Below, piece after piece: positions 1 through 6,000 of a stretch of DNA of 11,611 bases. Location: the IMG/VR virus record IMGVR_UViG_2872185964_000001, one strand, 5' to 3'. Positions within the stretch are counted from its first letter, which is position 1. Each line of letters opens with the position of its first letter. Origin of the DNA: a virus (Duplodnaviria; Heunggongvirae; Uroviricota; Caudoviricetes). The position numbers are program-made.

Positions 1-3000
1 TCATTTAACGTCCCCTGTGTTACCTTTCGTTTTATCACGAGCAATAAGCTGACTGGCAATAACCATCACCAGCGACAGCACCAGTAATATGGTTGCCAGC
101 GCGTTAACTTCCGGCGATACGCCGACTTTGACCATCGAATAAATTTTTAACGGCAGAATTTCATAACTTGGTCCGGTGACGAACGAAGAAACTACCACAT
201 CGTCCATCGACAGGGTAAAGCTTAACACCCAGCCCGCTGCCACCGCTGGCATTGCCAGTGGCAGTATGATTTTTCGCAGAATGGTAAATTCGCTGGCACC
301 GAGATCTTTCGCCGCTTCCAGCATCCGCACGTCAAAACCTTTCAGGCGCGAATACACCGTCACCACCACAAATGGCAGGCAGAAGGTGATATGCGAGAAC
401 AGCAGCGACCAGAAGCCAAGCTGAATACCCAGCAGCATAAACAGCACCAGCAGCGAAATTGCCATCACGATATCTGGTGACATCATTACCACAAACAGCA
501 TTCCGCTAACGAACGGCTTACCGCGAAAGCGATAACGGTACAGCGCAACTGCCGTCAGTGAACCGATAAGCGTAGCAAACGTCGCCGAAAACACCGCCAT
601 TGTTAGTGAATGCTGCGCTGCCTGTAACAGGCTGTCGTTGTTCATCAGCAGGCTATACCATTTGGTGGTAAAACCCTGCCAGTTGATGCCAAAGCGCGAG
701 CTGTTAAAGGAGTTCACAATCAAAATAATGATTGGGATATACAGGTACGCGTAGATAGCGGTCATAAAACCGCCGCGAAGCAGTCGACCGATCATTCGAG
801 TTCCACCTTCTTATTCATAAGGTGGAGCACTTTCAGGATTTTGAATTTATTCAATTTTTTCCTTTCTCCAAAATCTCTCCAAAACGTTTCCCCAAAACTA
901 GGCCACGCATTTTACAACACTTTTTTCCTGAGATGGTGACGGATATTCCATATGGTGTTTGTCAAATAACCAGCTTAACCCATTCCTGACCTCGAGTATC
1001 GTTATAGCGATCGGTGGTTGCCTGGACTTTATGTCCTAGTAATGTTTTTGTATCGATACCCTGTGCACGGTACAGCCGTTCTGATAGAGAGCGTTGTTCA
1101 TGAAATGTTGGCGGAGTTTTTCCTGCTGGTGGAATTATCCCAGCCAGATCCCGTGCTTTGGCAAAGTAGTCGCTCAGGTTGTCTTTACTCATCGGCTTCG
1201 GTTGTTTCTGGTGCCGACTATGGATTAGATATGGACTTAATATTCTGTCTCGGCACCCATCAATAACTTCTTTTAACGTTATCCCAATGGCATCACAGCG
1301 TAGTGTAAGCGGTAACGCCAGACGCATTCCGGTTTTTCCCTGGGTGATATGCAAGTGTTCGTTCCACACATCTGAAAAACGCATGTGGCAAATGTCATCA
1401 CGGCGCTGACCAGTAACAATCGCAAGAAGCATTGCGTTACGGATAAAGTGTTTTTCAGGCGTTGCATTGTAAATTTTTTGCCAGTCTTCCATGGTGAGCC
1501 TGGCTCTGGGTACTTTAGGGATCGGTTTACGGGTAGCCTCCGGAGGATTCCATCCAGGAGGAACTTCCCCTGCATGCTGTGCTTCTTTATAAATATCAAC
1601 CCATAATCCACGATTTACTCTCGCTGTGCTGACCATGTCTTTATCCAGCCACTCATCCAGTATTAATGCAAAGTCTCTTACTTCCAGTTCTTTCAATGGG
1701 TGGTTTCCCAGACGGGAAACCAGGTATGCAGCCATTCGAGTTTTTTCTTTGTGAGTTGTAGCTGCAATATCTCCATTTTTCAGTCGCGTGTCCTGTATTT
1801 TCAGATATCGATCAACCCATGCCTTTAATCTGATACCCCGACGTTTTGTTGCTGACGGACTTTCATCAATTTTGCGCATGAAATATTCAGCTTCTGCTGC
1901 AGCTATTCGCTGATTGGCTGTGGAAGCGATTTTTTCTGCCTTACCTTTGTCTGTTCCGAGTCCGTGAAATTTTCCAGTCACAGGATTTTTATACTGGTAG
2001 TAAACTCTGCCAGTTCTGCGATCAAACTTTTCGTAAAGACCGGCTACGTCAGTGCTGTTTTTTTGTGGCCTCGGTGACATGAGTTAAAATCTCCTTCAGT
2101 GCATCATCATCGCCAGTATGAATTTCCGGCGCAATTCCCGTTTCACCAGGCCCAACAAATACTGCTCGGCGATCTATCAGCCAACGCCCACGAATTTTTT
2201 GTGGTCTTGGAACGATGTATCCTAGTTTTCCGTATTTCACCAGGGTAGTGTTTGTTATTGGGAGACTGAACCGTTTTGGTTTCCACTCGTCGAGCGGGTA
2301 ATGCTGCCAACTTACTGATTTAGTGTATGATGGTGATTTTAAGGTGCTTGCGTGGTTTCCATTTCCATCAGATGTCCTTCCTGCTCCGCTACTGAAGGCG
2401 TGGTGCGTAACGGCAAAAGCACTGCCGGACATCAGCGCTATCTCTGCTCTCATTGCCGTAAAACATGGCAACTACAGTTCACTTACACCGCCTCTCAGCC
2501 CGGTACGCACCAGAAAATCATTGATATGGCCATGAATGGCGTCGGATGTCGCGCCAGTGCACGCATTATGGGCGTTGGCCTCAACACGGTTTTACGTCAC
2601 TTAAAAAACTCAGGCCGCAGTCGGTAACCTCGCGCATACAACCGGGCAGTGATGTGATTGTCTGCGCTGAAATGGACGAACAGTGGGGCTACGTCGGTGC
2701 TAAATCACGTCAGCGCTGGCTGTTTTACGCGTATGACAGGATACGGAGGACGGTTGCGGCGCACGTCTTCGGTGAACGCACTCTGGCCACACTGGAGCGT
2801 CTTCTGAGCCTGCTGTCGGCCTTTGAGGTCGTGGTATGGATGACGGATGGCTGGCCGCTGTATGAATCACGCCTGAAGGGAAAGCTGCACGTTATCAGCA
2901 AGCGTTACACTCAGCGCATTGAGCGACATAATCTGAATCTGAGACAACATCTGGCAAGGCTGGGACGGAAGTCACTGTCGTTCTCAAAATCGGTGGAGCT

Positions 3001-6000
3001 GCATGACAAGGTCATCGGGCATTATCTGAACATAAAACACTATCAGTGGATTTGCCCCTATATTTCCAGACATCTGTTATCACTTAACCCATTACAAGCC
3101 CGCTGCCGCAGATATTCCCGTGGCGAGCGATAACCCAGCGCACTATGCGGATGCCATTCGTTATAATGTTCGAACGCCTCTGCAAGGTTCTTTGCTGCCG
3201 TTAACCCGTCTGGTTTGGGCATGATACTGATGTAGTCACGCTTTATCGTTTTCACGAAGCTCTCTGCTATTCCGTTACTCTCCGGACTCCGCACCGCCGT
3301 GTTCTTCGGTTCAAGTCCCAACATCCGGGCGAACTGGCGTGTTTCATTAGCCCGGTAGCATGAACCATTATCCGTCAGCCACTCCACTGGAGACGACGGA
3401 AGATCGTTGCCGAAGCGGCGTTCCACCGCACCCAGCATGACGTCCTGTACTGTTTCACTGTTGAAGCCGCCGGTAGTCACCGCCCAGTGCAGTGCCTCAC
3501 GATCACAGCAGTCCAGCGCGAACGTGACACGCAGTCTCTCTCCGTTATCACAGCAGAACTCGAACCCGTCAGAGCACCATCGCTGATTGCTTTCTTTCAC
3601 GGCCACTCTGCCTGTATGTGCCCGTTTCGATGGCGGTACAGCAGGTTTTCGCTCAAGCAACAGCGCATTCTGGCGCATGATCCGGTAAACACGTTTGGCA
3701 TTGATCGCAGGCATACCATCAAGTTCTGCCTGTCTGCGAAGCAGCGCCCATACCCGACGATAACCATACGTGGGCAGCTCTCCGATAACATGGTGTATAC
3801 GGAGAAGCACATCCGTATCATCAGTGTGACGACTGCGGCGGCCATCCATCCAGTCATCGGTTCGTCTGAGAATGACGTGCAACTGCGCATGCGACACCCG
3901 GAGACAACGGCTGACTAAGCTTACTCCCCATCCCCGGGCAATAAGGGCGCGTGCGCTATCCACTTTTTTGCCCGTCCATATTCAACGGCTTCTTTGAGGA
4001 GTTCATTTTCCATCGTTTTCTTACCGAGCAGGCGCTGGAGTTCTTTAATCTGCTTCATGGCGGCAGCAAGTTCAGAGGCAGGAACAACCTGTTCTCCGGC
4101 GGCCACAGCAGTAAGACTTCCTTCCTGGTATTGCTTACGCCAGAGAAATAACTGGCTGGCTGCTACACCATGTTGCCGGGCAACGAGGGAGACCGTCATC
4201 CCCGGTTCAAAGCTCTGCTGAACAATTGCGATCTTTTCCTGTGTGGTACGCCGTCTGCGTTTCTCCGGCCCTAAGACATCAATCATCTGTACTCCAATGA
4301 CTAGTCTAAAAACTAGTATTAAGACTATCACTTATTTAAGTGATACTGGTTGTCTGGAGATTCAGGGGGCCAGTCTAATCAGTAAGTTGGAGTCATTACC
4401 CGCCGACTGCCTGGAATTTATCTGGTCGTTACCCGAAAATTCTGTTGACCTGATAGTCACGGACCCGCCGTACTTTAAAGTGAAGCCTGAGGGCTGGGAT
4501 AACCAGTGGAAGGGCGACGATGATTACCTGAAGTGGCTGGACCAGTGTCTGGCGCAGTTCTGGCGGGTGCTGAAACCTGCCGGAAGTCTTTACCTGTTCT
4601 GTGGTCATCGCCTGGCATCTGATATCGAAATCATGATGCGTGAACGCTTCAGTGTGCTGAACCATATTATCTGGGCGAAGCCGTCCGGACGCTGGAACGG
4701 ATGCAACAAGGAAAGCCTGCGGGCGTATTTCCCCGCCACAGAGCGCATTCTGTTCGCGGAACATTATCAGGGGCCGTATCGTCCGAAAGATGCCGGGTAT
4801 GCGGCGAAGGGCAGTGCACTGAAACAGCATGTGATGGCCCCGCTGATTTCTTACTTTCGTGATGCGCGAGCTGCCCTGGGGATAACGGCAAAACAGATTG
4901 CAGATGCCACAGGAAAGAAAAACATGGTGTCGCACTGGTTCAGTGCCAGTCAGTGGCAGTTGCCGAATGAAAGCGATTATCTGAAATTACAGGCGCTGTT
5001 TGCCCGGGTGGCAGAAGAGAAGCATCGGCGTGGTGAACTGGAAAAGCTCCACCACCAGCTGGTGGATACGTATACCTCACTGAACCGGCAGTATGCGGAG
5101 CTGCTGAGTGAATATAAACATCTGCGGCGGTATTTTGGCGTGACGGTGCAGGTGCCGTATACCGATGTGTGGACGCATAAACCGGTGCAGTTCTATCCCG
5201 GGAAACATCCGTGCGAAAAACCGGCAGAAATGCTGCAGCAGATAATCAGCGCTAGCAGTCGTCCGGGTGACCTGATTGCAGATTTTTTCATGGGGTCGGG
5301 TTCGACAGTGAAAGCGGCACTGGCGCTCGGGCGTCGTGCAATTGGCGTTGAGCTGGAGACTGAACGTTTTGAGCAGACGGTTCGGGAAGTACAGGATTTA
5401 GTCAGCCAGAACGGATGATATTGAAGAATTAATTACGAGTCGTTATTATGCGGCTCCCGGCCCTTTAGCTCAGTGGTGAGAGCGAGCGACTCATAATCGC
5501 CAGGTCGCTGGTTCAAATCCAGCAAGGGCCACCATCACATACCGCCATTAGCTCATCAGGAAAGAGCGCCAGCCTTCGAAGCTGGCTGCGCGGGGTTCAA
5601 GTCCCCGATGGCGGTCCATTATCTGCATCATGCGTTGTTAGCTCAGCCGGACAGAGCAATTGCCTTCTAAGCAATCGGTCACTGGTTCGAATCCAGTACA
5701 ACGCGCCACACTTATTTTCCCTGGCTCGCTTTTGCGGGCTTTTTTTTTAAATGTCTCACAATTCAGACGGTTGACTGTTGTCTGGTTTGCGGGGAGTTTG
5801 TTAAAAGAAACTGGCATGGTGAATCCCCCTGTGCGGAGGGGCAATCAGCGAGTAGGTATATGGGATAATCGCGGATTCAGGTGCTGGTACTGAATTCACC
5901 GGGAGGCACCCGGCACCATGCAATGGCACATAGCGCCACTCTCCAGCCCCTCTCCGGAGGGGCTTTCTTGTGGGCAAAAAAAGCCCGCGCTGGGAGACGC

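Follow-up and report, generated by a model that had tools for sequence, protein, structure and literature searches.

Nested insertion sequences (IS) are routine in IS-rich, Shigella-type genomes. IS1 is about 768 bp long, ends in imperfect inverted repeats of about 23 bp (left and right, IRL and IRR), duplicates 8-10 bp, usually 9 bp, of its target and carries two genes, insA and insB, which are joined by a -1 frameshift at an A6C motif to yield the DDE-type transposase InsAB'; IS2, a member of the IS3 family, is 1331 bp long, with terminal repeats of its own, the genes orfA and orfB, and a 5-bp target duplication. In Escherichia coli K-12, the isoform IS1F is essentially non-mobile by itself; overexpressed InsAB' mobilises in trans both IS1F and DNA bounded by IRL and IRR (PMC12903888). 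Here we analyze a stretch of 11,611 nucleotides (the window, that is, the whole stretch throughout this text) from the IMG/VR virus record IMGVR_UViG_2872185964_000001 (Caudoviricetes), in which an IS1 of the IS1F isoform is interrupted by IS2. The window belongs to the NCBI assembly GCA_002950295.1, chromosome CP026872.1, a Shigella-like chromosome of a lineage that most likely belongs to Shigella. The nested structure is an ordinary insertion of two known elements; very probably, it was made in place and has been inherited as a static structure since.

Anatomy of the nested structure

The IS2 in the window has the termini TGGATTTGCCCC... and ...GGCCAGTCTA, with its genes on the minus strand, and is directly abutted on either side by ATCAG, a perfect 5-bp duplication. 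When IS2 and one ATCAG are deleted, there remains a 768-bp IS1 that aligns without gaps to K-12 IS1F, with matches in 761 of the 768 positions. Because IS1F is restored so cleanly, the repeat is a true target-site duplication and not a chance 5-mer (ATCAG occurs 18 times in the whole window; the chance expectation for a 5-mer is 1/1024 per site). The initial annotation, which had described a 1331-bp IS2 with perfect ATCAG flanks as the product of a real transposition, therefore holds in its coordinates, and so does its statement that the IS1 ends are 2.1 kb apart with the IRR displaced by 1.3 kb, the span between positions 2297 and 4400 being 2104 bp (Table 1).

Apart from the target duplication of IS1, discussed below, both elements display the characters by which their families are recognized. 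In the interrupted IS1, these are the 768-bp length with imperfect repeats of about 23 bp and the genes insA and insB with the A6C motif; insA, the motif and the insB frame are all intact. The IRL and the IRR match each other in 21 of 23 positions and are both identical to the repeats of K-12 IS1F, the right end at 4400 being the reverse complement of GGTAATGACTCCAACTTACTGAT, and a promoter scan finds a promoter-like site, CTGCCA-16-TATGAT, at the left end. In the interrupting element, the characters are the 1331-bp length, the IS2 terminal repeats, the 5-bp duplication and orfA and orfB of the IS2 type; at the overlap of the two genes there is an AAAAAAG run (3963-3969) that is likely to be the IS2 frameshift site. 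With only 4 nucleotide differences from the annotated IS2 of E. coli VL7S7 (99.7% identity), and with both ends and both frames kept, this is probably a still active copy, so far as can be judged from its sequence. For both elements, the matches to the NCBIfam family models exceed the curated cutoffs.

ATCAG constitutes the innermost 5 bp of the 23-bp IRR, so the insertion point coincides exactly with the inner boundary of the repeat; together with the duplication, this means that a complete 23-bp IRR is kept at the outer end and that both IS1 termini are intact. IS2 has parted the IRR from the transposase gene as well as from the subterminal sequence AGTGTTTTATG....

On the side of the gene, IS2 directly follows CAG, the Gln codon with which the sense part of insB closes, and precedes the TAA stop, as the initial annotation had stated, and the insB frame runs on through the end of IS2 to a stop at 3131-3133, with the original TAA displaced to 4383-4385. 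The extension had been given as 29 residues and has to be corrected to 28, which is also the number of letters in the string quoted at the time. InsB accordingly comprises 195 amino acids, and the modelled product of the -1 frameshift, InsAB', 260 amino acids as opposed to the normal 232. The added tail is basic, with a pI of about 10.8. Since the IS1 family profile (transpos_IS1) stops at InsB residue 142, that is, 25 residues short of the natural C-terminus, the tail lies outside the conserved IS1 core, and inactivation of the transposase is therefore not certain. The end point of the profile at residue 142 also led us to drop the notion that the catalytic Glu lies within the last 20 residues of InsB. 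Nevertheless, given the 28-residue basic tail, an IRR devoid of its subterminal sequence and the near immobility of IS1F even when uninterrupted, we infer that the autonomous activity of this IS1 is reduced or gone. In the database, 1,248 distinct proteins carry the tail encoded by the right end of IS2, so IS2 read-through of this kind is generic.

Table 1. Positions of the components of the nested structure and of its flanking genes in the window
Feature	Position	Strand	Remarks
IS1 (IS1F isoform) interrupted by IS2	2297..4400	+	2104 bp as found; 768 bp minus IS2 and one ATCAG
IS1 IRL, 23 bp, GGTAATGCTGCCAACTTACTGAT	2297..2319	+	inverted-repeat scan; overlaps promoter-like site 2304-2331
insA, 91 amino acids, GTG start	2352..2627	+	NCBIfam IS1/IS1595 zinc-binding domain, 41.1 bits, cutoff 28
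insB frame, open reading frame (ORF) of 195 amino acids, 28 codons into IS2	2546..3133	+	NCBIfam transpos_IS1, 144.1 bits, cutoff 100
A6C frameshift motif AAAAAAC, in insA	2603-2609	+	
Left ATCAG, IS2 target-site duplication	3042..3046		last 2 nt of insB Tyr codon and Gln codon
IS2, 1331 bp	3047..4377	-	IS2 IRR adjoins the insB side; IS2 IRL adjoins the IS1 IRR
IS2 orfB, 301 amino acids	3058..3963	-	NCBIfam IS2 transposase TnpB, 725 bits, cutoff 597, full-length match
IS2 orfA, 121 amino acids	3921..4286	-	NCBIfam IS2 repressor TnpA, 276 bits, cutoff 229, full-length match
Right ATCAG (4378-4382); displaced insB stop TAA (4383-4385); complete 23-bp IS1 IRR ATCAGTAAGTTGGAGTCATTACC	4378..4400	+	
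Left flank: phage excisionase gene (xis) without its first 22 nt	2049..2296	-	intact homologue in E. coli Z1323PEC0011 extends 22 nt past the junction
Right flank: phage late-region DNA methyltransferase gene without its first 41 nt	4401..5418	+	

Origin, distribution and mobility

The 9-bp target duplication of IS1 is absent around the composite: the flanks read ...TCGAGCG on the left and CGCCGACTG on the right, and share no repeat. The reason is that the interrupted IS1 sits on a prophage deletion junction, so the absence reflects the history of this copy rather than the type of the element. Indeed, with the xis gene truncated at one IS1 end and the methyltransferase gene at the other, the whole early region of the prophage has been deleted at the interrupted IS1. 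To the left, the composite is preceded by potC, a phage integrase gene and the truncated excisionase gene, an intact version of which is present in many E. coli prophages at potC; to the right, the methyltransferase gene is followed by three tRNA genes and then a nanS-p-like gene, an arrangement that matches Stx-type phages, and no stx genes are present in the window.

The following history very probably accounts for these features. IS1F would have been resident first, in a lambdoid prophage that resembled Stx phages, was integrated at potC and was decaying; this IS1F forms the junction of a deletion that removed the early region, the two end points being the starts of xis and of the methyltransferase gene of the late region. 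IS2 would then have transposed into ATCAG at the inner edge of the IRR, duplicating these 5 bp. As a consequence, the insB stop and the 23-bp IRR lie 1.3 kb away, the predicted InsAB' gains its basic tail from the IS2 end, and at the right end of IS1 the terminus is uncoupled from the subterminal sequence.

Junctions of the composite were searched for in 5,426 complete E. coli genomes, PLSDB plasmids, phage records, GTDB species-representative genomes, JGI metagenomes and IMG/VR, with degenerate patterns included that covered both IS2 orientations and both IS1 ends. At the methyltransferase side, the occupied junction reads IS2 end, 23-bp IRR and CGCCGACTG..., and an empty one would read ...AACACTATCAGTAAGTTGGAGTCATTACC followed by CGCCGACTG.... 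Neither composite junction was found in the complete E. coli genomes, the plasmids, the phage records, the GTDB representatives or the metagenomes, and the sole outputs were a parallel case in E. coli VL7S7, discussed below, and one IMG/VR contig of the same locus. The exact 195-residue InsB is recorded once among 153 billion gene positions, and a literature search returned no specific report of nested IS1/IS2. The component parts are common: E. coli has IS1F-like copies with 99.7% identity across the 750 bp that were compared, 3,695 records contain a copy with at least 99% identity, and there are about 75,000 IS1 places in the 5,426 E. coli genomes. The search for the identical composite at other loci, suggested by the initial annotation, thus yielded a single locus in two nearly identical assemblies.

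The IMG/VR contig, L018, carries the same locus with the composite and is 99.92% identical to the window over positions 962-11611, the differences being 7 substitutions and 2 single-base indels, namely, one extra G in L018 at 6448 and one at 6891, both within G runs. As L018 is another assembly, from a close relative, the structure is real and common to the lineage. This comparison also bears on the possibility that IS1 and IS2 repeats were mis-joined in an indel-bearing long-read assembly. The source assembly does have the homopolymer indels just mentioned, and potD is split in it and intact in relatives, but a mis-join would not yield exact IS2 termini, a perfect 5-bp duplication and a gap-free IS1F, and the recurrence of the structure in a non-identical assembly further argues against an artefact, which we consider extremely unlikely. 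In three more assemblies with an identical integrase, the contigs end inside IS1, at the same junction between xis and the IRL and short of the IS2 position; because this junction is shared, the IS1 insertion is common to a lineage. A synthetic query that combined IS1F without IS2 and the methyltransferase flank, as expected of an IS2-free ancestor, gave no match.

The initial annotation had left two possibilities, namely, that the nested structure could move as a unit or that it was a dead IS1. Taken literally, the first would make IS1::IS2 a functional 2.1-kb compound element that is moved by its own extended InsAB' or by the transposase of other IS1 copies. Such an element would have what it takes on paper, since both 23-bp IS1 repeats, insA, the A6C motif and the open insB frame are intact, and the InsB tail is added beyond the conserved core. 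The minimal-end study by Gamas and colleagues in 1985 is said to have found 21-25 bp to be sufficient. The published activity of overexpressed InsAB' on IS1F and on a cassette bounded by IRL and IRR points in the same direction. The structure as found speaks otherwise: it lacks an IS1-type target duplication, lies on a deletion junction and occupies a single locus in the two assemblies, being absent from the other collections searched. Moreover, another IS2-in-IS1F structure (P0020, see below) is fixed at one locus, the VL7S7 parallel is accounted for by insertion in place, and IS1F alone is essentially non-mobile in K-12 (PMC12903888). We therefore regard movement as a unit as very unlikely and favour a static, inherited structure.

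Several considerations weigh against the static reading, and we list them together. Unit transposition would be recognized by the presence of the composite at no fewer than two loci, each with a duplication made by the outer element; no such pattern was seen, but complete Shigella chromosomes lie outside all the DNA collections searched, so that the confinement to one locus is a limited negative. On the protein side, the InsB variant of L018 is absent from the protein collection, and exact look-ups miss variants that differ by one residue. The order of events is a reconstruction rather than an observation because the short-read relatives break inside IS1 and offer no IS2-free copy of the same IS1. 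The loss of activity of the 260-residue InsAB' is presumed from its sequence. Finally, mobilisation of the 2.1-kb unit in trans by the other IS1 copies of the cell would be possible in principle, given that both 23-bp termini are intact and that InsAB' has been reported to act in trans (PMC12903888).

The surrounding prophage remnant

The composite is joined to its neighbours by hybrid reading frames. The open frame of the methyltransferase gene now begins upstream of the gene, within the end of IS2, and crosses the IS1 IRR (ORF 4243-5418, plus strand), and on the other side a frame leads from IS1 into the truncated xis (2049-2471, minus strand). A hybrid outward promoter at the IS2/IS1 junction, TTGTCT-18-TCTAAT, which could have driven the methyltransferase gene, was considered and dropped, the promoter scan having failed to report it.

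Downstream of the methyltransferase gene, at 5459-5975, the window contains the three tRNA genes, whose anticodons are CAT, TCG and TCT, together with a match to the small RNA STnc100 over its full length (139 bits), in the position that is occupied by stxAB in Stx2 phages. The nanS-p-like gene (DUF1737 / DUF6645; 6198-7584) is split into three ORFs, and on exact look-up its fragments are exclusive to the source assembly owing to the single-G indels; because L018 has the extra G in G runs, the frameshifts may be sequencing errors or else very recent changes. These fragments are followed by an IS3-family element at about 7600-8800 on the minus strand, with an orfA of 100 and an orfB of 272 amino acids, which is probably IS600.

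A second IS1, of the consensus type, is located at 10899-11611 (to about 11666 in the contig L009), in inverted orientation and 91% identical to the IS1F copy, and has a perfect 9-bp target duplication, AAGAAGTTC, on both sides; between this copy and the interrupted one lie 6.5 kb of prophage remnant. Altogether, the locus illustrates the erosion by insertion sequences of a potC-integrated, Stx-phage-like prophage in a Shigella-type genome.

Comparison with other IS1/IS2 arrangements and with known elements

The one independent parallel comes from E. coli VL7S7. There (NZ_CM177009.1), in the interval that separates yeeN from a tRNA-Asn gene, IS2 is likewise inserted at the ATCAG of the inner boundary of a 23-bp IS1 repeat. 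In both cases, the left end of IS2 abuts the outer IS1 23-mer and the same 5 bp are duplicated. The VL7S7 structure differs in that IS2 has entered an IS1A at its left repeat, ahead of insA, and thus does not extend the transposase, and in that the composite keeps the 9-bp duplication of IS1, CTGATTACC. The outer 23-mers are also different, of the GCTGCC type in one case and the GACTCC type in the other, and so the two insertions are independent. In an O121 strain, the corresponding site carries this IS1A but no IS2 (218/218 in one piece), which suggests that in VL7S7, too, IS2 entered a resident IS1, most likely in place.

These two independent events, at equivalent positions (within the IRR of the window IS1F and within the IRL of the VL7S7 IS1A) and with the same IS2 orientation, raise the question of whether ATCAG at the inner edge of the IS1 repeats is a preferred target at which IS2 repeatedly disables IS1. 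Written out as WATCAG-N4-TTR, the site deviates from the IHF core consensus, WATCAANNNNTTR, by one mismatch. Furthermore, in 67 of the best 120 among the 1,248 proteins with an IS2 read-through tail, the codon directly ahead of the tail has A as its second base, against a share of roughly 29% expected from E. coli amino-acid frequencies. This bias fits the A at position 4 of the ATCAG duplication and suggests that IS2 prefers an A there in its target.

Against a hot spot, IS2 is found at the equivalent site in only 1 of the 5,426 E. coli genomes, among all their IS1 places, and other IS2 insertions into IS1 lie elsewhere, after KRYTQ and after HDKV. The link to IHF would be a matter of reading the motif, and two events are too few for statistics, the second having been found by searching exactly for such a junction. 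A hot spot thus appears unlikely and is unproven. Quite unlikely is the combined proposition that the IHF-like ATCAG site at the inner edge of the IS1 repeat is preferred by IS2 and that the resulting 2.1-kb IS1::IS2 would still be movable in trans. Were a preference real, insertion sequences would interfere with each other in the sense that one of them repeatedly severs the link between the transposase gene and the terminus of the other; this is the only wider point of the present case, and two events do not establish it.

Other contacts between the two elements came up in the course of the analysis. The P0020 structure, in which IS2 follows ...KRYTQ of InsB, is located near ytfJ and a penicillin amidase gene (contigs L004-L008; about 4160-5490 in L004-L007); the protein occurs on 14 contigs, including the complete chromosomes CP026762, CP026866 and CP026867, at the same locus wherever examined. 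Its right flank is not IS1, and therefore this IS2, too, lies on a rearrangement junction. In E. coli TOP10 (NZ_CP080620.1; L002, 2560-2620), the right end of an IS2 abuts the outer end of an IS1A, ...GAGTCATTACC being directly followed by TGGATTTGCCCC, with many partial genes around; the contact may be genuine or may stem from a faulty assembly.

Among the known systems, Tn9-type compound transposons and the engineered miniIS1 share with the window the general design of DNA placed between an IS1 IRL and an IRR; DNA bounded in this way can be moved by InsAB' (PMC12903888). The window structure differs from these in that the cargo is another insertion sequence within a single IS1, of which no transposed copy is known, and in that 23 bp are retained at the right end, compared with about 130 bp in miniIS1 (PMC12903888). 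The K-12 IS1F at the yjhU locus agrees with the window copy in its length of 768 bp, in both 23-bp repeats (IRL and IRR identical), in insA and insB with the A6C motif, and in 99.1% of its nucleotides; however, in the window copy IS2 breaks into the element at the IRR, the insB frame is longer and a flanking 9-bp duplication is absent, whereas the insB of K-12 IS1F contains an internal stop that the insB of the window does not have. The importance of the nesting is small beyond annotation, where it explains both a 195-residue 'InsB' and IS1 ends that are 2.1 kb apart. As for IS2 itself, the window copy agrees with the described element of the IS3 family in the length of 1331 bp, the imperfect terminal repeats, orfA and orfB of 121 and 301 amino acids, the AAAAAAG run and the 5-bp duplication, and there is no material difference; its target simply happens to be another insertion sequence.

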